Assembly: GCA_021498095.1 (NCBI GenBank)
Contig: JAIZWK010000001.1
Coordinates: 90,001-122,000 of the forward strand
DNA: 32,000 nucleotides
Source of the DNA: Candidatus Harpocratesius repetitus
Lineage (GTDB): Archaea; Asgardarchaeota; Lokiarchaeia; Sigyniarchaeales; Promethearchaeaceae
Reading direction: 5' to 3'
How positions within the stretch are numbered: the stretch's first letter is position 1; each line of letters starts with the position of its first letter. Positions 4,231-32,000 of this stretch are shown here, one piece after another. The translations under genes and the position numbers were made by a program. The notes beneath the pieces are model-generated. The model was not told where the DNA came from, searched no databases, and saw only the letters and a list, made by a program, of their open reading frames with translations.

Positions 4231-4846
4231 ATATTTATTCCTATTCCTTTCTTCCTTATAATTCTATGAGATTGGCAGTTTAATACAATTTCATATAAAT
4301 TTCCAAGATCATTTGTTTTTTTAGTTTATTGGATTAAAAATGATGACTTATTCATAGTAATTATCTTGATTTTAAAAAATAGAAAAGATTTTCATATAAA
4401 GTCTAAATAATTCTTTCAATTTTCAATCCAAATATTAATCGCTTATCTCTATTTTAATTTAGGTTCATATCATACTGAAGAAAACCTCCCGGAATTAGAA
4501 AAAATAAGAGATTTTTTAATCAAACGAAATTTCTCAAATACATCTCTTGCTTCAGATTATAATAATTTCAAAATTAAACCTCCCAGTTTAATAATAGATT
4601 CCATTTAATCAGACCTTATGGACCAACAAGAGGTAAATATTTTTCAATATAATGATATATCTGAAGTTGCAGAATACTGTTTCATATATATTAAAAATAA
4701 TTCCCTAAATGATTAATTTTTCAAAAAAAAAGATAATTTAGAACCTAAATTACCCTAATATTGAGATAACTAAAGATATTATAGAATTAGAAGTCCTTTT
4801 TCTTGAAATCTTAAAGTTCAATGAAAGAAAATTATTAAATAGACCT

Positions 4847-6777: not shown

Positions 6778-8769
6778 ATGTTTAATCCATTTGAAAAATT
6801 GGCAAATAATGCTTATGGGCGTTTGATGCAAATCCAAGATTTACCGGATGGTACAATAATTTATGAAGTTTGGTTTGATTACTGCCAAGAACTCTACAAT
6901 CAAATTAATGTAGGTTCATTTCTAGCGATTAAAAATTTCACTTTAGGGAATAAACCGGACCAAATTCATTACAGCATTCTTAAAATCATTAAAAAAATGC
7001 CCACACATTATGCAATGTTGGAAAATCTTCATAAAGGATATCCGGCATTTTCTGAAGAAGCTGCGCGCAGCATTCGAGATTCATTTACCGACCAAATTTC
7101 CCAATCAGATGAAGATCTTTCAAAAATTGTAGTTACAGCGGTTTCAACTAATTATGAATTTATATATCATGATAAACTCCAATCAATTAAAGATTTTGAA
7201 GTGATCCTTGAAAGTAATATAGCAATCTATGGAGAAGAAGCAAAAATACTTAGTAAGGATGCAGTACAAAAAATAATTAATAGAAATTTCACTTTAGATG
7301 CCCCTGAAATTGTATCTATAGGAACAATGAAAGAAAATGAAGAAGTCCAAGTTCTAATAGATATCGAAAAAGCATTAAAAACTCATTTCGGAATTTTTGG
7401 ATTTACAGGAGTTGGAAAAAGCAATTTACTCAGTACATTTATCTCAAAAATTTTTGAGAAAAAGGAACATATTCATAAAATTTTATTTTTTGATCTTATG
7501 GATGAATATCTCGGTCTTCTTTTAGATCTGTTCTTTAATAAAAATCTTAACTGCTATTATGTATATATTGATCATAAAGATTTAAGCCGAGATGAACGAG
7601 ATTATTTCACAACTCTTGATTGGTCTGACAGTATCTGCAATCAAATTTATCATCAAATGGTGTTACCTCGCGATATTAAAATAAACGATCAATACGCAGA
7701 TGAAATTAAAAAATTAATTAAAGCAATGTATCTAAACAGAAAAGTTAAAGTCATTGGCACAGTGGAAACTGTTGATAAATGGTTTGAAAAGAAACTAGAA
7801 TCAGTTCCGACTAAAATACAAAAGAAATATCTCTTATTTTCTGATCTAAAAAAATTATTAAAAAATCAAGGAATCGACATGAATGCCAGCATAACTGAAG
7901 AAATTCGGAAAAAAATAATTCCAATTTTAGAAAATCCTCCATTTTACTCAAAAACTCACTCAACATCAAAGAAAAAACAAAAAGAAGCCAACCAAGCCCA
8001 TTCAGCTAAGCAGTCTACAATTGAAGGTGGATTAATATCTGAAGATAAGAAAACTAAAAAAGCGAATACATTTCATTTAGCGAAAGATTTTGAAAAAAAT
8101 AGCTGGATTCAGTACAGAGAATTACTAATTTCTTATATTAAAAAGGATTCAATCATCAATTATTCAAATTATGGGGATTTTGTAATTAGCATGGAACAAA
8201 TCATTAAAGATACGGATGATGAATCAAAATCTTCTCTTTATATCTTCAGCGCCAATCGCGATTCACAACTAAGGGAGTTTCTAAACGAAATCGGATCAAA
8301 AATCTACGATCACCGAAAAGAAGAAGGAAAAATCAGCCCTATTACTTCACTTATATTCGATGAAGCGGATACATTTATACCCCAGTCTGAGGGAAAAGAT
8401 GAAAGTATCTCACTGTCTAAACAGATGATCGAGCAGTATGCAAGACGAGGTCGTAAATTTGGATTGGGAATCGGATTGGCAACTCAACGGGTGACCTATC
8501 TTGATACTACAATACTAGGACAGCTTCATACCTATTTTGTCAGTAAACTTCCGAGAAAATCGGACAGAGATCGTATTAAAGAAGCTTTTTCTTTTTCTGA
8601 TGAAGAATTAAATGAAACATTCCGTTATGGAAAAGGTAATTGGCTGTTAGTCAGTCATGAAGGGATGGGAATAGAAGGTGTGCCTTTATCCATTAAAAGT
8701 GAAAATGCAAATGATCGTCTTATTCAATTTTTCTTGGATCTCAGAAAAAGAATGACAGAATCTGAATAA
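6778..8769 (+). CDS. herA: HerA-like ATPase/DNA translocase (DUF87 family)
   Basis: Walker A HFGIFGFTGVGKSN, Walker B LIFDEADTF, arginine finger RRGRKFG, ATQR motif; N-terminal beta-rich HAS-barrel-like region; starts 2 bp after the nurA stop. Confidence 0.92.
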   Translation: MFNPFEKLANNAYGRLMQIQDLPDGTIIYEVWFDYCQELYNQINVGSFLAIKNFTLGNKPDQIHYSILKIIKKMPTHYAMLENLHKGYPAFSEEAARSIRDSFTDQISQSDEDLSKIVVTAVSTNYEFIYHDKLQSIKDFEVILESNIAIYGEEAKILSKDAVQKIINRNFTLDAPEIVSIGTMKENEEVQVLIDIEKALKTHFGIFGFTGVGKSNLLSTFISKIFEKKEHIHKILFFDLMDEYLGLLLDLFFNKNLNCYYVYIDHKDLSRDERDYFTTLDWSDSICNQIYHQMVLPRDIKINDQYADEIKKLIKAMYLNRKVKVIGTVETVDKWFEKKLESVPTKIQKKYLLFSDLKKLLKNQGIDMNASITEEIRKKIIPILENPPFYSKTHSTSKKKQKEANQAHSAKQSTIEGGLISEDKKTKKANTFHLAKDFEKNSWIQYRELLISYIKKDSIINYSNYGDFVISMEQIIKDTDDESKSSLYIFSANRDSQLREFLNEIGSKIYDHRKEEGKISPITSLIFDEADTFIPQSEGKDESISLSKQMIEQYARRGRKFGLGIGLATQRVTYLDTTILGQLHTYFVSKLPRKSDRDRIKEAFSFSDEELNETFRYGKGNWLLVSHEGMGIEGVPLSIKSENANDRLIQFFLDLRKRMTESE

Positions 8770-25343: not shown

Positions 25344-26170
25344 TTCAGAAATAAAATTGGAATATTTAGCCATTTGAACACTTAATACTTATGAGGTTCT
25401 AGCAACTTCTATATTTTTGACAGAATTCCCATTTTAATCATTCATTTTCCGACAATAATCAAACTTATCCAAGAATTATTTCAGTCGGCAAAGATGAACT
25501 TTAGAAAATATAATTATGGGTAGGTTTTTGACTATTTTTAATCAAATTTTAGTAGAAATGATAAAAAAAGTTCTAAATTTTTGATCGACAAATTTCAAAT
25601 TTGGATGGAATGTTGGTAAATGCGTAGATTATGCATGATTTTTATTTTTTTATTAATCTATCAAATGTTGATAAAGGCTCTTATAGAAATCAAAAAATTG
25701 TGCATAAAAAAAAGATAATTAAAATAATTCAAACATAATAGATTTATCAATTATTATTTTGATAATAATACTTGAATAGGTAAGGAAATTTCACCTGTAA
25801 AAACTAAAAAGTAGAATATCTTGATTCAATCTTTACTATTCCTGATATTATTCATTACGAGTATAATATAATAATATTAGCACTTTGATTTCTCCTTTAT
25901 GAAAAAGATATTCTCATAAATTTGCAGTTTTTTTCTTAAGATCCTAAATTGTTCCTTATTTGCATGATTTTGGGTAATACATTTCTTATAAGTAGCAAAT
26001 CGGTTAAAGATAATACGCTTTAGATTGAATTGGAAAGGAATCCTTTTCTAATATATTTTTTAGACTCGTGAAATGCTCAATTGTTGCATGATCATTTTGT
26101 GTTAATGAAATAAATTATATATGTAAAAAACAAATTATTTAATTAAAATATCTAAGGAGATAAAATTAAA

Positions 26171-26959
26171 TTGGACGACGCTATAGTTTTAATAAATAAT
26201 CTCATCAAATCTCGATATGGGATTGAGAATTACTATAATATCATGATTTTTTTTGCTTATGGTAATGAAATGTTGAAATCGTTGTTTTTTTGGCGGGTTT
26301 ATGACCTAATGACCAGTTTAAGAAATACCATGTTACGTGGTGAAAAAACACCTTATCCTGATTTAGAGCAGAAATTTAAATCATATATGATAAATGAAGA
26401 AGATCCGACATTTCAAAAAATAACCAATCGAATAATTAAAAGTTTCATTCTAAATGATTTTGAATTCCTTTCGAAATTGAGAAATAATGAAATTTCTAAA
26501 GATTTTTTATTCTCTCACCTTATTCAAACTCCTATCAAAACAAAATTTGCTAAAAATCTATTTCAAGTAAAAGAAGATGGATTATTATTTTCAGATTTTG
26601 CATTAAATTCTCTTAAAAAACTGCGGTCTCAATTGGATTCTGGTCTATTTATATTTGATAAAATGACTCCTGAAATGGAAAAACTTTATAAAAACAATAT
26701 GAATCCTAAAAGCCATAAATTTCTCAAAAAAGCCAATAAAAGATTTTTTACAAACTTAATTGATTCATCTACTCAAGCCATTAGAGAAGATCTATTTAAT
26801 TTACACGCTTGGCGCTTACTAATCATGTCTTTGATTAATATGAAGCAATTTTACGAAGCACAAGAAGCCCTGAAATTTGCAATGGCAATTGATATGTATT
26901 TTGAGCCTTTTTGGAAACTCGGGTATGAATTGAGCGAGGCATTTGAAAAAAACAAATAA
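26171..26959 (+). CDS. Hypothetical protein with a C-terminal TPR-like helical pair
   Basis: 262-aa ORF; AWRLLIMSLINMKQFYEAQEALKFAMAID fits a single TPR consensus. Confidence 0.55.
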   Translation: MDDAIVLINNLIKSRYGIENYYNIMIFFAYGNEMLKSLFFWRVYDLMTSLRNTMLRGEKTPYPDLEQKFKSYMINEEDPTFQKITNRIIKSFILNDFEFLSKLRNNEISKDFLFSHLIQTPIKTKFAKNLFQVKEDGLLFSDFALNSLKKLRSQLDSGLFIFDKMTPEMEKLYKNNMNPKSHKFLKKANKRFFTNLIDSSTQAIREDLFNLHAWRLLIMSLINMKQFYEAQEALKFAMAIDMYFEPFWKLGYELSEAFEKNK

Positions 26960-27114
26960 ATTATCGAATAAAATGAATTTAATGAAATGAGAAAAAAATA
27001 TTTAATAACGAAGTAGATTATCAAAACGGAGAAATTTCTTGAAAAAGAATTTGATTGGAACTGATTGGCCGAGAAAATTGCTGCAACTCATAAAAAAAAA
27101 GCCATGAAGCATAT

Positions 27115-27194
27115 CAGTTCAGTTAAGTTTAGTTCAGTTCAGTTAAGTTCAGTTCAGTTAAGTTCAATTAAGTTCAATTCAATTCAATTCAATT
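27115..27194. repeat. Pentanucleotide tandem repeat, 16 units (CAGTT/AAGTT/TAGTT/CAATT)
   Basis: Read directly: units start as CAGTT/AAGTT and change to CAATT toward the right end. Confidence 0.95.
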
Positions 27195-27400
27195 CAAATT
27201 TGGAATTTTTCAACTTCTTAATTTATGTTGCTAATTCAAACTTGGTTTTCATTTAACCAATACATATCTCACCTTGTATCTTTTGGAAAAATTCACCTGG
27301 TATTACGCCAATTTGGTGTTCACAGCTCAAAACGCCGCACAACTTCTAATAGAGTATCTTACCAGCGCCTTGGGAGATTATATCATATGATTTATTTACC

Positions 27401-27529
27401 TTCTTTATATTATAGAAATAATATATTTATATTTTTATATATTCTATAATAATATATGTCTTCAAAAACTACGGTGGCAATTGATAAAGCGTTACGAAAA
27501 AAATTGAAAAAAATTGCTCTTTTCTTAGA
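27401..27529 (+). repeat. Long direct repeat, copy 1 (matches 30238-30366)
   Basis: Offset 2837 bp; 2 mismatches in 129 bp (27404/30241 and 27412/30249), identical from 27413 to 27529. Confidence 0.95.
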
Positions 27530-27551
27530 ATTGAAAAAAATTGCTTCTTAA
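27456..27551 (+). pseudogene. Truncated 31-codon copy of the RHH antitoxin gene
   Basis: MSSKTTVAIDKALRKKLKKIALFL is identical to the start of 30293..30625, then ELKKIAS-stop. Confidence 0.88.
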
Positions 27552-27673
27552 AACTAACAACAAAAAGTTATGATGAAAAAAAATTATATAAAAAATTATT
27601 GAAGACTCCTAATTATTAAGTGATTAATTGTAATAGATTAATTAGGTTATGAAATTAACTAGATGATTAAAAT

Positions 27674-28969
27674 ATGGTGATATCAGATAAAGTTAATATT
27701 ATAAATTATCTTGAAAACTTTAAACTAAATAAATTCAATAATGGAGATTCTAAAAAAAAGGGGAAAAAGACAGGTTTAGATATTTATATCAAAGAAAAAG
27801 GGGAAACCATTATTGAAAAATTTGAATATCAAGGCATGTATTTCATGAAATTTATTAATGAATTTTGGACTTCGAAACAAAGACAAAGTTCATCCTTACA
27901 TGAAATTTCATATCGAGCTTGTTATAAAGCTCAATTACCAAGATTTTTTATTGAAATTATGACAAAAAAAGGAGATTATGTATATGATCCATTCGCCGGA
28001 AGAGGAACAACAGGTATTGAGGCCGCTTTGATGGGGAGAAATATAATTTTAAATGATATTAATCCCTTAAGTAAAATTTTATCAAAACCACGTCTAAATA
28101 TACCAACTCATGATGAAATTGAGAAAAGACTTGATTCAATTAAGATGGATTATAATCTAAAAGCAGAAATTGATATTTCAATGTTTTATCATCCAAAAAC
28201 TGAATCAGAAATTGTTTCATTAAAAAAATATTTGAATGAAAAAAAACTAAATGGTGAAGAAGACTTTATAGATGAATGGATAAGAATGGTAGCCACAAAT
28301 AGGTTAACTGGTCATTCTAAAGGATTTTTTTCTGTATATACTTTACCTCCTAATCAAGCAGTTTTACCTGAAAGACAATTAATAATAAATAAAAAAAGGA
28401 ATCAAACACCAGAATATAAGGAAATAAAACCTAGAATTATAAAGAAATCAAAATCATTACTCAGGAATCTCTCAAAACAAGAAAGGAATAATTTGAAATC
28501 AGCTGCAAACAAAGCGATATTTTTAACTTTAGATGCACAGAAAACGAAAAATATTCCAGATAATTTTGTTCAATTAACAGTTACTTCTCCTCCTTTCTTA
28601 AATGTAGTTCAATATTCAGATGATAATTGGTTAAGATGTTGGTTTAACTCTTTAGATGTTAATGAAATTTCAAAAAAAATAACTATAGAAAATAATATAA
28701 ATGAATGGACAAGAATAATGACAAATGTTTTCAAAGAATTATATCGCATAACCAAAGTAGATGGTTTTGTAGCATTTGAAGTTGGTGAAATAAGAAACGG
28801 AAAAATAAATTTGGATGAATATATCCTCCCAATTGGTTTAAAAGTAGGGTTTAATTGTATAGGTATCTTAATTAATTCCCAAAATTTCACGAAAACGTCA
28901 AATATTTGGGGAATAAAAAATAATAAAAAAGGCACAAATTCTAATCGTATAGTTATATTCCAAAAATGA
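27674..28969 (+). CDS. Amino-methyltransferase, probably N4-cytosine type (motif I before motif IV)
   Basis: YDPFAGRGTT (motif I) precedes VTSPPF (motif IV; SPPY/F is typical of m4C enzymes); SYRACYKAQLPRFFI at the N-terminus. Confidence 0.88.
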   Translation: MVISDKVNIINYLENFKLNKFNNGDSKKKGKKTGLDIYIKEKGETIIEKFEYQGMYFMKFINEFWTSKQRQSSSLHEISYRACYKAQLPRFFIEIMTKKGDYVYDPFAGRGTTGIEAALMGRNIILNDINPLSKILSKPRLNIPTHDEIEKRLDSIKMDYNLKAEIDISMFYHPKTESEIVSLKKYLNEKKLNGEEDFIDEWIRMVATNRLTGHSKGFFSVYTLPPNQAVLPERQLIINKKRNQTPEYKEIKPRIIKKSKSLLRNLSKQERNNLKSAANKAIFLTLDAQKTKNIPDNFVQLTVTSPPFLNVVQYSDDNWLRCWFNSLDVNEISKKITIENNINEWTRIMTNVFKELYRITKVDGFVAFEVGEIRNGKINLDEYILPIGLKVGFNCIGILINSQNFTKTSNIWGIKNNKKGTNSNRIVIFQK

Positions 28970-28973
28970 ATCT

Positions 28974-29672
28974 ATGGAGTTTGTTAATAATATGGACGAA
29001 AAAGACAAATATATCAAAGAATTAGAAGATTTACTAACAGAAATGATGAAACCTATTAAGAATGTACCATTTAATTTAGTCATAAAAGGATTTTCTGGTC
29101 ATGATGTTATTTTATTCGACATGAATAATTCTAAAGATAGAGAACTTCTAGACTTATTAATAGAAGGGGCGCAAGATGCATTAAATAATGCATATAGCCA
29201 AGGAATTAAAGTAAAAAGAACGAATGAAGTTGGAAATTATATTGAAGAATATGTTTTGAATTCTTTAAATAAAGTAGGTTTACACGCTTCAAGGCCAAAA
29301 ACAAAGAGAGGTACTCATAAAGCGGGTGGATATCCAGATATTTTTATTTTAGATAAATATAAAAGACCTACATATCTTGAAATAAAATCCTACAATATTA
29401 AAAATTACCAGACTACCCAAAGGTCGTTCTATTTATCCCCATCCACAGAAAAAGATGGATTTAAAGTAATTCATGATGCTAGACACCTTATTTTAAGTTT
29501 TCAAATTGAGAAAAAAAAAATTGAAGATAAAGAAATTACATTTATTCCTGTTCATTGGACGATTTTTGATACAAAATACCTTAAAGGACAAATTAAACAT
29601 GAATTTAACGCATCTAATAAACAAATGTATTTAAATGAAGCGATTCTTGCAAAAGGTTCTATTGAAAAATAA
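28974..29672 (+). CDS. Type II restriction endonuclease, PD-(D/E)xK fold
   Basis: NEVGNYIEEY helix, GYPDIF and YLEIKS catalytic motifs; starts 4 bp after the MTase stop. Confidence 0.8.
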   Translation: MEFVNNMDEKDKYIKELEDLLTEMMKPIKNVPFNLVIKGFSGHDVILFDMNNSKDRELLDLLIEGAQDALNNAYSQGIKVKRTNEVGNYIEEYVLNSLNKVGLHASRPKTKRGTHKAGGYPDIFILDKYKRPTYLEIKSYNIKNYQTTQRSFYLSPSTEKDGFKVIHDARHLILSFQIEKKKIEDKEITFIPVHWTIFDTKYLKGQIKHEFNASNKQMYLNEAILAKGSIEK

Positions 29673-29811
29673 GGATTAGATTCAAAGAGAAATATAGAAA
29701 AAAAAGGAAAACAGAATTTTTGTAGAAATATTTAGCGAGAAGGACACTTAAGATTTTTAGAATGGGAGATATTCAAGAGCTAATTAATGTATGCAATAAA
29801 TTATACCAAGT

Positions 29812-29923
29812 TTTTCAATTATCTCTTTGATAATTTCAAGCTTGCAGGCAATCTATAGTTATACATAACTAAGATTGGCCATTTATATTTCAATTATCTC
29901 TTTGATAGTTTCAAGCTTGCAGG
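29812..29923 (-). repeat. Two 37-bp CRISPR-like direct repeats separated by a 38-bp self-complementary segment
   Basis: Minus strand repeats CCTGCAAGCTTGAAA[C/T]TATCAAAGAGATAATTGAAA[T/A] at 29923-29887 and 29848-29812; period 75 bp; identity extends 4 bp further after one mismatch. No third copy found. Confidence 0.85.
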
Positions 29924-30237
29924 GAATCAGTTCTACTTCTACCATTCGATATGCAATTTGATATATAGCTTTTTAAAGATGAACGAAATTTGATATTCAA
30001 GCAGAAGAGAGCAAATGGTAGTTAAGACAGCAAAATCAAAAGAATAACATAATCCATAAAAATATCGTCCCAACAATTCATTGTGGCAGAAATTTTAGGT
30101 TTATGGCAAAAATTACAAAACCTTTAGAAAAATTCTAATACAAATTCCAAGCCAAATTATACTCTACGTATCGGAATGCTAATATCACGTAGAAACCTTT
30201 TTCTGGTAGAGAGCACCACCTACATGAATTGATCGCT

Positions 30238-30366
30238 TTCCTTATATTGTAGAAATAATATATTTATATTTTTATATATTCTATAATAATATATGTCTTC
30301 AAAAACTACGGTGGCAATTGATAAAGCGTTACGAAAAAAATTGAAAAAAATTGCTCTTTTCTTAGA
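30238..30366 (+). repeat. Long direct repeat, copy 2 (matches 27401-27529)
   Basis: Covers the promoter region and first 24 codons of the intact antitoxin gene. Confidence 0.95.
30251..30270 (+). promoter_or_regulatory. Putative archaeal BRE/TATA promoter for a leaderless vapBC transcript
   Basis: Purine-rich AGAAATAA followed by TTTATATT at -30 to -23 relative to ATG 30293; duplicated at 27414-27433. The AT-rich context lowers specificity. Confidence 0.45.
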
Positions 30367-30625
30367 CCTCACCCAAAATGAGGTAATTGAAAAGGCGTTA
30401 TCCTTATTAGAACAAAATATCATCACACAAATCAAAGAATCTTCGAATAAAGCAGCCCTAAATAGTTCTAATGATCCTATTAAAAATACATTAGATATAA
30501 TTAGTCAGAAAGTCTGTGAAATTGATAGCAACCATAAAAAAATTCAAGAAATTTTATACAGTGGTCCAGAAACCATCGATGACATTATAACCTCAAATTG
30601 GAATACAGGGCTGGGTATAGAATGA
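30293..30625 (+). CDS. vapB: RHH/CopG-type antitoxin
   Basis: KTTVAIDKALRKKLKKIA...TQNEVIEKAL beta-alpha-alpha pattern; stop overlaps the PIN gene start (ATGA). Confidence 0.8.
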   Translation: MSSKTTVAIDKALRKKLKKIALFLDLTQNEVIEKALSLLEQNIITQIKESSNKAALNSSNDPIKNTLDIISQKVCEIDSNHKKIQEILYSGPETIDDIITSNWNTGLGIE

Positions 30626-31065
30626 AAAAGCAGAATATTATAGCTCTCGATTCCAATGTTTTCCGAAATCGGCAGTTTATTGATTATTTAATTTTCCACA
30701 AAGATCGATTGAATATCGGTCTTCCCATAATTGTGCAGGTGGAAGTTGCATATTTTTATAAAATTAAAGGATTTTCTTGGGAAATTTTTAAAAAAGAAAT
30801 GAAAAAGTTTGATGCGGTATTTATGGACTGGAAGATCGCAAATGTCGATGAAATTATCACCCGGATCTTTAACAACAAGCAGAATTTGTCATTCAAACAC
30901 CATTTTCGAGACTATCTGATTGGGTTGCAAAGCGAAAAAGCAAATCGGAACCTTATCACATACAATACATCACATTTTAATTGGTTGAACAAGGTTGAGG
31001 TTAAAACCCCTGAAGATTTCGTAAAGGATCTTGAAAAAATTATAAAGAATGCAAAAACCAATTAA
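30622..31065 (+). CDS. vapC: PIN-domain ribonuclease toxin
   Basis: IIALDSNVF, VQVEV, FRDYLIG, LITYNTSHF; ATG 30622 overlaps the antitoxin TGA. Confidence 0.88.
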   Translation: MKKQNIIALDSNVFRNRQFIDYLIFHKDRLNIGLPIIVQVEVAYFYKIKGFSWEIFKKEMKKFDAVFMDWKIANVDEIITRIFNNKQNLSFKHHFRDYLIGLQSEKANRNLITYNTSHFNWLNKVEVKTPEDFVKDLEKIIKNAKTN

Positions 31066-31233
31066 TTATTTTTACTTCAATACCTCGATTTCGGGGAATT
31101 CTTTTGAAATGTCTCACATCATCGGGTGATATCTCAAGATTATGGCCGTTTTTTACGCTGCACTCCATTCTAAAGGATTTTCTAATACATTACCAATGAA
31201 TTTTAATTTTTAAAATCGGCAAATCAAAACAAA

Positions 31234-31674
31234 ATGTCCGAAAAAAACACTCCTTCTTTGACTGATCAAATAAACGTCTACTTAAAAGCCATTGAATATA
31301 AGCGCAGCATCGGGAAAACTCAATGATCTATCTTTTCCTTATTTGCAACCGGTGCGGGAGCCGCATTTATTTACAGCTTTAAAGAACAGGAATGGATACC
31401 CCAACTTTTTATCCAGTTAACCGCAATTTTAATATTTTGGTTGGGTATTGTCTTTTATAACTTGTATCGCCGAATTAACAAAGGAGTGACTGAATTTCTG
31501 GTCCAGTTTGAATCATCGGTTAATTTCTTTCGTGATTTTCAAAAAACCATCAATGAAAACTATAAATCTAAAAGATCTTCTTCTCAAATATTAACATTTG
31601 CGGGCATGTTTTTGATGGTGCTCACAGCATTATACCAATTAATCCTCTATTTACAGAGATCTGGGGGTTTTTAG
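31234..31674 (+). pseudogene. Three-TM membrane protein gene interrupted by a single in-frame TGA (31324-31326)
   Basis: ATG 31234 is in frame with ORF 31441..31674; reads MSEKNTPSLTDQINVYLKAIEYKRSIGKTQ*SIFSLFATGAGAAFIYSF...; three hydrophobic helices. Confidence 0.72.
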
Positions 31675-32000
31675 ATGGTTCAAAACTATCCAGAAGATGC
31701 ATTTGAAAAGATCATGAAGAATGAGCAAAAACGATGGGGATTAACTTGTGTTTCTTTTTTACCCCATGATATTCAAGATAAGATTCAAAAGCTGCAAGAA
31801 ACCATATTAAATTGCTACGACAACCGAATTGCCCTAGAAAATTTATATAATAATTCTTTTATCCGATTCTATCAAAGAGAACAATTACACACGACCCATT
31901 ATACTTTAACACGAAGTCGTCCTGAAAACGCCTATATTAAGGCAGATATTCTAATAAAGGAAAATCAAATTTCATTCAGTAATTTCTACAATGCTTTCTT
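31675..32000 (+). CDS. Partial ORF, possible 2H phosphoesterase (runs off the right edge)
   Basis: ATG immediately follows the TAG at 31674; open to the window end; MVQNYPEDAF...WGLTCVSFLP...FYQREQLHTTHYTL contains a first HxT-type motif. The second motif would lie outside the window. Confidence 0.55.
   Translation, partial: MVQNYPEDAFEKIMKNEQKRWGLTCVSFLPHDIQDKIQKLQETILNCYDNRIALENLYNNSFIRFYQREQLHTTHYTLTRSRPENAYIKADILIKENQISFSNFYNAF

Follow-up and report, generated by a model that had tools for sequence, protein, structure and literature searches.

The window, by which we mean the whole 32,000-nucleotide stretch of Candidatus Harpocratesius repetitus DNA that was analysed, carries near its right end two gene pairs separated by a short CRISPR remnant. 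On the forward strand, a gene for a 431 amino acid DNA methyltransferase (27674–28969; Pfam N6_N4_Mtase, 3.3e-20) is followed by one for a 232 amino acid MjaV-family type II restriction endonuclease (28974–29672; PF27324). Further downstream on the same strand lie the genes for a 110 amino acid antitoxin (30293–30625) and a 147 amino acid PIN-domain, VapC-like toxin (30622–31065), the start of the latter overlapping the stop of the former (ATGA). The methyltransferase, the endonuclease and the CRISPR remnant are bracketed by a pair of direct repeats, the right-hand one of which leads into the toxin-antitoxin (TA) operon.

In-register comparison of 27401–27529 with 30238–30366, both on the forward strand, revealed 127 identical positions out of 129 at a start-to-start distance of 2837 bp, while a repeat search delimited the pair as a two-copy direct repeat of 143 nt (27387–27529 and 30224–30366; 94%). 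The two mismatches in the repeat core are T at 27404 versus C at 30241 and A at 27412 versus G at 30249. Similarity is patchy, at about 60% identity, 16–20 nt upstream of the core and drops to the random level farther out, and the right edge, at 27529/30366, is abrupt. A search of the 4.36-Mb archaeal genome against itself returned these two copies only. The left copy comprises the TA promoter/operator region, including an imperfect palindrome of 44 nt (27408–27451), and antitoxin codons 1–25; the right copy is continuous with the intact operon. A 78%-identical relative (L024) has a TA module to which homology can be detected from 30240 onward, so that the repeat's left edge and the start of this homology are no more than about 3 nt apart. 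By this comparison the edge of the repeat coincides with the apparent edge of the TA module.

The left copy ends in a truncated antitoxin stub of 31 codons plus stop (27456–27551, forward strand; stop codon at 27549–27551), in which 25 codons identical to the intact antitoxin are followed by six derived from the junction, and which lacks the second ribbon-helix-helix (RHH) helix and the toxin-binding C-terminus. At the boundary between repeat and insert lies a junction stutter (27530–27552, forward strand), a tandem re-copy of 27503–27529 that is imperfect over 23 nt and exact over 16 nt (27503–27518 equals 27530–27545). It may hint at template switching, slippage or illegitimate joining. Were 27530–30366 removed, the left flank would run straight into an unbroken TA operon. 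The first-pass annotation had described near-identical repeats around the two genes and a repeat element, with a truncated antitoxin in the left copy and an intact operon running on from the right one, and this layout was reproduced in full, down to the contrast between the 31-codon stub and the 110-codon reading frame.

The same annotation had named the operon vapBC. Fold searching with Foldseek gave PIN/VapC proteins as the top matches of the toxin (1y82, TM 0.73; VapC4, 5h4h; TM up to 0.76), the AF2 model of which has a pLDDT of 89.7. Residues D10, E41 and D97 are invariant, N115 occupying the fourth position. The PIN identity needed the fold search: profiles of the toxin family returned nothing from the PDB, neither the toxin nor the antitoxin of the window matched Pfam PIN (PF01850) or a VapB-type family at threshold, and only one of 14 toxin homologues matches Pfam PIN (0.002). 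The antitoxin, with an RHH-like N-terminus and a predicted toxin-binding C-terminus, is likely of the ribbon-helix-helix type. Its profile match to the RHH protein E73 is weak (E = 0.06), and its AF2 monomer contains only helices 11–24 and 28–52 at low confidence (pLDDT 62).

Complex prediction for antitoxin and toxin gave 0.73 versus 0.00 for the best control, with a contact agreement between runs of at least 57% and a partner pLDDT of at least 72, and located the interface of the intact antitoxin at residues 63–101. Of 80 solved complexes 58 attain the mark used, as do two of 110 mismatched pairs; since VapBC complexes have been solved, the score may express no more than resemblance to them. 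The pairing of the two genes is conserved in other genomes. Judged from the PIN fold, the conserved pairing and the modelled complex, the target is a TA pair. The operon can be called vapBC-like, with a PIN toxin and an antitoxin of weakly supported RHH class.

Motif I (FAGRGTTG) precedes motif IV (TSPPF) in the translated methyltransferase, the order of the alpha type, and the protein is an alpha-type N6/N4 enzyme that probably produces m4C. The endonuclease has a PD...E-x-K motif (GYPD...LEIK); in the family alignment there is no variation at D122 and K138 and almost none at E136, as in PD-(D/E)xK enzymes. A PDB sequence search with the endonuclease gave no significant match. The precomputed PF27324 tag is attached to the endonuclease itself (P0001) and to 75 of the 75 homologues listed with it, and in both bacteria and archaea endonucleases of the MjaV family are found with an adjacent N6_N4 methyltransferase. 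The reading of these genes as a restriction-modification (R-M) pair is therefore sound: they form a genuine type II system with an MjaV-family PD-ExK endonuclease and an N6/N4 methyltransferase.

M.MjaV produces m4C at GTAC (PMC2588503, PMC11033074), and by analogy we presume a GTAC specificity with m4C protection here. Genome-wide, GTAC has an observed/expected ratio of 0.74, the second lowest among the 16 palindromic 4-mers. At the locus it occurs only at 29064 and 29311, both within the endonuclease gene. The idea that the restriction site might lie near the junctions and mark them was rejected, since the presumed site is away from both.

The insert between the repeats measures 2708 nt, and its only credible open reading frames are the two R-M genes. 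ORF and profile searches of the insert found no integrase, transposase or recombinase, as the first reading had held. No tRNA gene or Rfam family was found in or near the locus, so that tRNA-type site-specific integration was rejected as an explanation for it. The insert's GC content is 26.9% versus 31.0% for the genome. The closest homologous cassette (L016), the methyltransferase of which is 74% identical at the amino acid level, has only the two R-M genes in common with the window (27694–29630, 73% at the nucleotide level), which argues that the R-M pair is horizontally mobile.

Sequence comparison indicates that the insert is composite: only 27694–29630 is homologous to other cassettes, and the right 0.5 kb is a CRISPR remnant. 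The supposed repeat element proved real and is a mini-array of two repeats (29812–29923), with the same repeat as the arrays of 6, 53 and 152 repeats elsewhere in the genome. The repeats (29812–29848 and 29887–29923, reverse strand) agree with the 152-repeat array's consensus at 35 of 37 and 37 of 37 positions, respectively, and are spaced 75 nt apart; the spacer between them is 38 nt long and palindromic. The reverse orientation is suggested by the ATTGAAAT 3' end and by the position of the conserved flank. A truncated leader follows (29955–30150, reverse strand), which is 79% identical to positions 222–417 of the roughly 450-nt conserved flank of the 53-repeat array and lacks the repeat-proximal 190 nt or so. 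Both mini-array and partial leader match the genome's own type III arrays, and the next CRISPR array and cmr genes lie 5 kb from the mini-array. The spacer had no second match in its own genome and none in viral contigs, and the flanks between genes and repeats gave no other informative match in the genome. Mini-CRISPR arrays are reportedly found on mobile elements and viruses (Medvedeva et al. 2019; Faure et al. 2019); the present one may simply be a decayed resident array.

To place the locus within its family, 160 loci with an MjaV-family endonuclease were surveyed. At least 10 independent cassettes among them are tightly bracketed by direct repeats of 36–701 nt, made of local sequence and unrelated to one another. 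Where both flanks extend for 3 kb or more, eight of 59 loci are bracketed, versus 0, 0, 1 and 1 for shifted pseudo-windows. A Bacteroidales pair supplies the empty site: one contig (L200) has a single copy of a 231-nt sequence where another (L197) has two copies around a 2183-nt insert of methyltransferase and endonuclease genes, the flanks of the two being 99–100% identical. Because homologous cassettes are repeatedly bracketed by unrelated repeats, with one verified empty site, these alignments identify insertion with long target duplication as a demonstrated habit of the MjaV R-M family. In most members the right repeat begins 3–220 nt after the endonuclease stop codon; at the present locus the distance is 565 nt and is taken up by the CRISPR DNA, which looks native to the CRISPR supercluster, a point against the same route here. 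One family member (L051) abuts the 3' end of a tRNA. A transposon-like end structure was considered and rejected, the bracketed cassettes having no common terminal sequence or inverted repeat. With at least 10 independent brackets in bacteria and archaea and a clean occupied/empty pair, the family is a good model for studying the mechanism.

The empty-site allele that the first-pass annotation had hoped to see in related genomes was not found for this locus, either in a DNA search of 40 relatives or in scans of metagenome and genome contigs. When the 40 relatives were searched with 26000–31700, only methyltransferase homologues were found, standing alone and without synteny; for the gene on the left flank a single homologue, 32% identical, was found in a genome of the same genus, again without synteny. 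Scans of metagenome and genome contig collections for the exact 24-nt repeat core gave 0 matches.

One informative contig did emerge (L025), from a second strain, about 4% diverged and from another sample, ERZ27227322. Leader fragment, repeat and the remainder of the antitoxin follow one another on it, so that it contains the occupied right junction. Compared with the window it shows three differences in 199 positions to the left of the 30237/30238 junction versus 19 in 365 on the TA side, a contrast that fits two segments with different histories. The insertion had been called recent, which is now doubtful because the junction of leader fragment and right repeat is common to this diverged strain. 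Taken together with repeat copies that differ at two of 129 positions, the shared junction implies either an old insertion with homogenised copies or an ancestral arrangement of leader fragment and TA operon. In Logan unitigs of the source run, each relevant unitig starts 30 nt before the end of a repeat copy; since one (L028, 27500–29914) runs into the R-M genes and another (L027, 30337–35053) into the antitoxin, both right-hand continuations are present in the raw data; the source runs named in the Logan contigs are SRR15988955 and SRR15988949.

Insertion of R-M genes with long target duplication is attributed to Nobusato et al. 2000 as cited by Furuta, Abe and Kobayashi 2010 (PMC2853133). 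The latter authors (NAR 38:2428) described the route and its criteria, namely homologues of R and M inside the bracket, an insert of less than 20 kb without a mobility gene, repeats of more than 30 bp that are highly identical and not dispersed, and a related genome in which one repeat copy stands without the insert. At our locus the R and M homologues occupy 27674–28969 and 28974–29672, the 2708-nt insert is free of mobility genes, and the repeats agree at 127 of 129 positions with two copies in 4.36 Mb; a single-copy allele was seen for the Bacteroidales cassette, but for this locus none turned up in the relatives and contig collections searched. No archaeal case survived the screen of Furuta et al. 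(PMC2853133).

From this evidence we consider it reasonably probable that an MjaV-family R-M system entered the promoter-proximal part of the vapBC-like operon by insertion with long target duplication. For this individual locus, origin by the family's route is something we infer, as are its timing and the joining mechanism. A type II R-M unit would have entered the 5' part of the RHH antitoxin/PIN toxin operon without a recombinase, at the edge of the archaeal host's type III CRISPR-Cas supercluster within a defence island, and the event would have left two copies of the 129-bp target segment around a 2.7-kb insert. The right copy leaves the TA operon intact and the left is a dead 31-codon stub. 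The CRISPR DNA would have come along from an earlier residence beside an array or been taken up while the ends were joined.

The principal competitor, which we hold to be unlikely but by no means negligible, is a local rearrangement in which the R-M genes, the mini-array with its leader fragment and the TA operon were already neighbours where the CRISPR supercluster ends and a copy of about 150 bp, spanning the promoter and 5' end of the TA operon, later came to lie upstream of the methyltransferase. Template switching or unequal exchange would then have produced a promoter capture, and no R-M insertion would have taken place. The sharing of the leader fragment-TA junction with a strain about 4% diverged, while the repeat copies are 98.4% identical, speaks for such a history, as do the 16-nt stutter at the left junction, the use of the genome's own CRISPR repeat in a mini-array that has another array and the cmr genes 5 kb away, and the promoter that the left copy supplies 122 bp upstream of the methyltransferase. 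However, it leaves the at least 10 likewise bracketed homologous cassettes, one with an empty site, unexplained, it would need the copy to begin exactly at the edge of the TA module, and the insert is poorer in GC than its surroundings.

That last edge is what would be expected if the left copy were the end of a second TA module, and it is a coincidence under random target duplication. A mobile vapBC-like module that landed or was duplicated at both 27401 and 30238, with the left one cut at codon 25 by deletion or by the arrival of the R-M genes, would account for both copies starting at the same module position, which is also where homology begins in L024, whose TA module lies in a different context. 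We nevertheless regard this history as improbable: two events and a deletion are required, no remnant of a toxin or of an antitoxin 3' end lies on the left, and the apparent module edge may be no more than the end of promoter constraint at the divergence of that relative (78% identity). We give least credence of all to mis-phasing in the assembly, that is, an empty TA site together with a separate circular or tandem 2.8-kb R-M molecule holding one repeat copy. A short-read assembly graph is identical for both states, and the 129-nt repeat exceeds k = 31, the Logan unitigs breaking at it; yet the independent contig from the other sample shows the integrated phasing of leader fragment, repeat and antitoxin, the copies can be told apart by the bases at 27404 and 27412, and the assembly consists of one contig of 4.36 Mb.

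Insertion with long target duplication, our preferred reading, has possible consequences for regulation. The promoter/operator of the left copy points into the methyltransferase-endonuclease operon 122 bp downstream, and the R-M genes could in this way have come under antitoxin autoregulation. Such an R-M operon behind a TA promoter/operator offers a testable regulatory coupling between two addiction-type modules in a CRISPR-Cas island. The 129-bp repeats may also serve as substrates for precise excision or amplification. A bolder picture, and one to which we attach little weight, would have the R-M system as an autonomous recombinase-free element crossing between bacteria and archaea and, in this Asgard-type archaeon, tied into two further layers of defence, with transcription from the duplicated TA promoter/operator, the RHH antitoxin as a controller like a C protein and the mini-array as cargo that borrows the type III machinery of the host.

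Comparison with known systems places the components as follows. Like VapBC, the target operon encodes a PIN-fold toxin in which three acidic residues are invariant; a small antitoxin gene precedes the toxin gene and overlaps it by 4 nt, the promoter contains a palindrome, and the antitoxin C-terminus is predicted to wrap over the active-site face of the toxin. It differs from VapBC in that its proteins have no Pfam PIN/VapB match at threshold, an invariant Asn takes the fourth catalytic position and the RHH fold of the antitoxin is weakly supported. The mini-array resembles those of mobile elements and viruses in being a one-spacer, two-repeat array with the host's CRISPR repeat inside a putatively mobile segment, whereas its leader is truncated and no match was found for its palindromic spacer in the searches described above. 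The R-M pair resembles the MjaV system of Methanocaldococcus jannaschii in that its endonuclease is a member of the Pfam family that takes its name from MjaV and its partner is an N6/N4-type methyltransferase with the SPPF-type motif IV expected for m4C. Partner methyltransferases vary within that family, and the Bacteroidales partner matches the present one over 62 residues only (local, 40% identity).

The arrangement as a whole is closest to the known R-M insertions, with which it has in common R and M genes lying without a recombinase between genome-unique local repeats of more than 30 bp, here around an insert of about 2.7 kb, and homologous cassettes that are bracketed likewise, one with an empty site. 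It departs from them in its archaeal host, in a duplicated target that consists of promoter and 5' end of a TA operon, and in the CRISPR mini-array remnant that the insert also holds. The route has been known since 2000; the locus is no new kind of element but a further, archaeal example of this recombinase-free route of entry.

From the layout of positions 27401-30366, we propose that a restriction-modification (R-M) unit was inserted into a toxin-antitoxin (TA) operon with a long target duplication, as in homologous cassettes. A repeat search of the window revealed a two-copy direct repeat (27387-27529 and 30224-30366; spacing 2837), the sharp core of which was placed at 27401-27529 and 30238-30366 by alignment followed by in-register comparison. 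The core copies differ at 2 of 129 positions (27404 T vs 30241 C; 27412 A vs 30249 G) and are the only ones in the whole genome (4,361,485 bp, single contig); upstream there are about 20 nt of patchy similarity (~60%), and then the random level is reached. The window occupies bases 90001-122000 of this contig. At 27530-27545, just past the right end of the left copy, the 16 nt of 27503-27518 are copied again without mismatch; a stop codon comes next, the ORF being a 31-codon stub. The right copy leads into an ORF of 110 codons, the stop of which shares ATGA with the start of a second ORF (147 codons). The first-pass annotation, which had described direct repeats 2837 bp apart bracketing a methyltransferase (MTase), a restriction endonuclease (REase) plus a repeat element, with a truncated antitoxin on the left and an intact operon on the right, is thus confirmed in these respects. 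Two Logan unitigs from a source run, L028 (27500-29914) and L027 (30337-35053), start exactly 30 nt before the end of their respective repeat copies and run into the R-M genes and the antitoxin, so that both continuations are present in the raw data. About 200 nt to the left of the left copy, the intergenic stretch 27114-27203 consists of ~90 nt of degenerate pentanucleotide tandem repeats (TCAGT/TAAGT/TCAAT).

The R-M genes code for an N6_N4 DNA methyltransferase (27674-28969; Pfam 3.3e-20), in which motif I precedes the TSPPF motif IV, and an MjaV-family REase (28974-29672). The latter carries a precomputed PF27324 tag (family name MjaV), as do all 75 homologues listed with it; our local Pfam copy gave no match for this product. 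The family alignment retains PD...ExK, with D122 and K138 invariant and E136 nearly so. MjaV itself cuts GTAC, and M.MjaV makes m4C (PMC2588503, PMC11033074). Neighbouring MTase and REase genes of this kind also occur in Bacteroidales, Patescibacteria, Nanoarchaeota, Heimdallarchaeota and many other lineages. The closest cassette, at locus L016, shows 74% (MTase) and 68% (REase) amino acid identity, and what it has in common with the window is confined to 27694-29630, that is, just the two genes. In keeping with the claim that no transposase or integrase lies inside, no recombinase gene, tRNA or known RNA was found within or beside the repeat-bracketed segment. A paralogue of the MTase (genome 2436726-2437958; 62% amino acid identity) stands in housekeeping-like surroundings with no REase alongside, and homologues in four related genomes (56-62% identity) are likewise alone; these may represent orphan members of this methyltransferase family.

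The 147-aa product of the target operon is predicted with high confidence to fold into a PIN domain (pLDDT 89.7), and the best Foldseek matches of the model are Pyrococcus PIN/VapC4 and bacterial VapC structures. Among 14 homologues, residues D10, E41 and D97 do not vary, nor does the Asn at the fourth position. Toxin homologues derive from Promethearchaeia/Promethearchaeota MAGs. By sequence pattern, the N-terminus of the 110-aa antitoxin is weakly suggestive of a ribbon-helix-helix (RHH) fold; its profile match to the RHH protein E73 is weak (E = 0.06), and a low-confidence monomer model contains two helices (11-24 and 28-52). The two genes are paired in other genomes (41-78% identity). Prediction of the antitoxin-toxin complex gave a score of 0.73 against 0.00 for the best control, with contact agreement between runs of at least 57% and partner pLDDT of at least 72. 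Of 80 solved complexes 58 attained the scoring mark, as did 2 of 110 mismatched pairs. In the model, antitoxin residues 63-101 are placed over the active-site face of the toxin. The model supports binding of toxin by antitoxin, though VapBC complexes have already been solved and the score may reflect likeness only. Neither protein reaches Pfam thresholds, and the pair resembles VapBC in fold and organisation rather than by family membership. The earlier identification of the target as vapBC is therefore retained as "VapBC-like": PIN fold, gene organisation and pairing uphold it and Pfam membership does not. Since the left stub holds codons 1-25 only, it can neither dimerise as an RHH protein nor bind toxin.

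The "repeat element" of the first-pass annotation is real and lies between the direct repeats; it is a CRISPR mini-array (29812-29923) in which a 38-nt spacer separates two 37-nt repeats. The same repeat builds arrays of 6, 53 and 152 units outside the window (genome 125025-125438, 133707-137631 and 163385-174746; window-equivalent starts 35025, 43707 and 73385). Of the two mini-array repeats, the one closer to the right flank agrees with the consensus at 37/37 positions and the other at 35/37. Over ~450 nt the two large arrays have colinear right flanks, and this conserved sequence is probably a leader. Window 29955-30150 matches (79%) only positions 222-417 of that flank, indicating that the mini-array leader is without its repeat-proximal ~190 nt. 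Both repeat and partial leader match the lineage's own arrays, so the right 0.5 kb of the supposed cassette is the lineage's own CRISPR-type DNA and not part of the transferable R-M unit. Within 5-15 kb beyond the mini-array there are ORFs that in size and order resemble cmr genes and a csx1-like gene. The 53-repeat array has a one-base repeat variant (GCATGCAGG). The mini-array spacer (29849-29886) is an imperfect palindrome, predicted to form a hairpin on what is presumed to be the transcript strand (z = -3.1, 131-nt region); no match to it was found in the rest of the genome or among viral contigs.

No empty site, i.e. an allele with a single repeat copy and no insert, was found for the window locus (relatives are too distant, and exact scans of public collections gave no match), and homologous cassettes were therefore examined for the same behaviour. 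The first loci to be self-compared had long direct repeats around the R-M pair (158 nt in L016, 231 nt in Bacteroidales loci). Among 160 fetched loci encoding an MjaV-family REase, direct repeats of 36-701 nt tightly enclose the cassette in at least 10 independent cases, the repeats being local sequence and different in every cassette; the bracketed inserts measure ~1.95-2.8 kb, with one case of 5.1 kb, and no conserved ends were seen among them. Where at least 3 kb was available on both sides, 8 of 59 loci were bracketed, versus 0, 0, 1 and 1 in pseudo-windows shifted by 2.5-3 kb. Two Bacteroidales metagenome contigs represent occupied (L197) and empty (L200) alleles. In L200 nothing intervenes between the same 874-aa upstream gene and the downstream gene, and the 231-nt sequence is present once; both L197 copies align to it at 100%. 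The L197 insert (2183 nt) comprises only MTase and REase; the duplicated target spans the 3' end of the 874-aa gene, and the right repeat begins 4 nt past the REase stop. Judged by the published criteria (PMC2853133), this pair and the bracketed cassettes together demonstrate that R-M insertion with long target duplication, the route that the first-pass annotation had proposed for the window locus, is a habit of the MjaV family. In the L051/L155 cassette the bracketing 38-nt repeat (4335-4372 and 6892-6928) starts right after a tRNA-like 3' end (GGTTCAAATCC...CCA), which may reflect site-specific integration rather than long target duplication. Non-bracketing repeat pairs with ~2.5-3 kb spacing lie a few kb from the R-M genes in L065 (8135-8400/10634-10898), L066 (9385-9560/12521-12696) and L153 (9764-9902/12483-12614), and may bracket other inserted cassettes.

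By analogy with these cassettes, long target duplication is the best explanation for the window, and the lower GC content of the insert (26.9% vs 31.0% for the genome) fits R-M insertion. Local rearrangement of a promoter copy among resident genes is kept under consideration. REase stop and right repeat are 565 nt apart; in most relatives the distance is 3-220 nt, and in two others it is 430 and 449 nt. The gap in the window is taken up by the CRISPR remnant, possibly resident DNA of the adjoining CRISPR supercluster. GTAC occurs only at 29064 and 29311, not near the junctions. The same points keep a further candidate under consideration, two TA copies of which one is truncated. In L024, a 78% relative with a different context, detectable homology to the TA module begins at 30240, within ~3 nt of the left edge of the repeat, as expected if the left copy ends a second module, although the coincident edge may merely mark the end of promoter constraint.

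Both alternatives also draw on L025, a 564-nt ENA contig from another sample that is ~96% identical to window 30039-30650. It spans leader fragment, repeat and antitoxin, and the right junction is thus present in a second strain. Mismatches to the window amount to 4/81 in the repeat and 14/259 in the remaining antitoxin, compared with 2/129 between the window's own copies. Divergence is 3/199 to the left of the junction and 19/365 on the TA side, which mildly favours different histories for the two segments. These values would be accounted for by an insertion older than the strain split, its copies having been homogenised, by recombinational spread of the insertion from strain to strain, or by an ancestral leader fragment-TA arrangement. 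Mis-phased assembly of an empty site plus a 2.8-kb circle would give the same short-read graph, but L025 displays the integrated phasing, which argues against it. L025 is without 48 nt equivalent to window 30257-30304 (core promoter and antitoxin start codon), which may be a genuine inactivating deletion or else reflect the collapse of an AT-rich palindrome during assembly.

The left copy, which lies 122 bp upstream of the MTase start, contains an AT-rich promoter region as well as an imperfect palindrome of 44 nt. The R-M genes could plausibly be transcribed from this duplicated TA promoter and repressed by the antitoxin. Excision or amplification might also proceed through the 129-bp repeats, a proposal made for R-M units of this kind (PMC2853133). 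A 2010 survey of repeat-bracketed R-M units retained no archaeal example (PMC2853133); the SSU rRNA of the present genome scores best with the archaeal model. Compared with known systems, the points of interest are the archaeal host, a TA promoter as the likely target and an apparently hitch-hiking CRISPR remnant, together with a compact REase family that shows long target duplication repeatedly and, in L197/L200, offers a clean occupied/empty allele pair.
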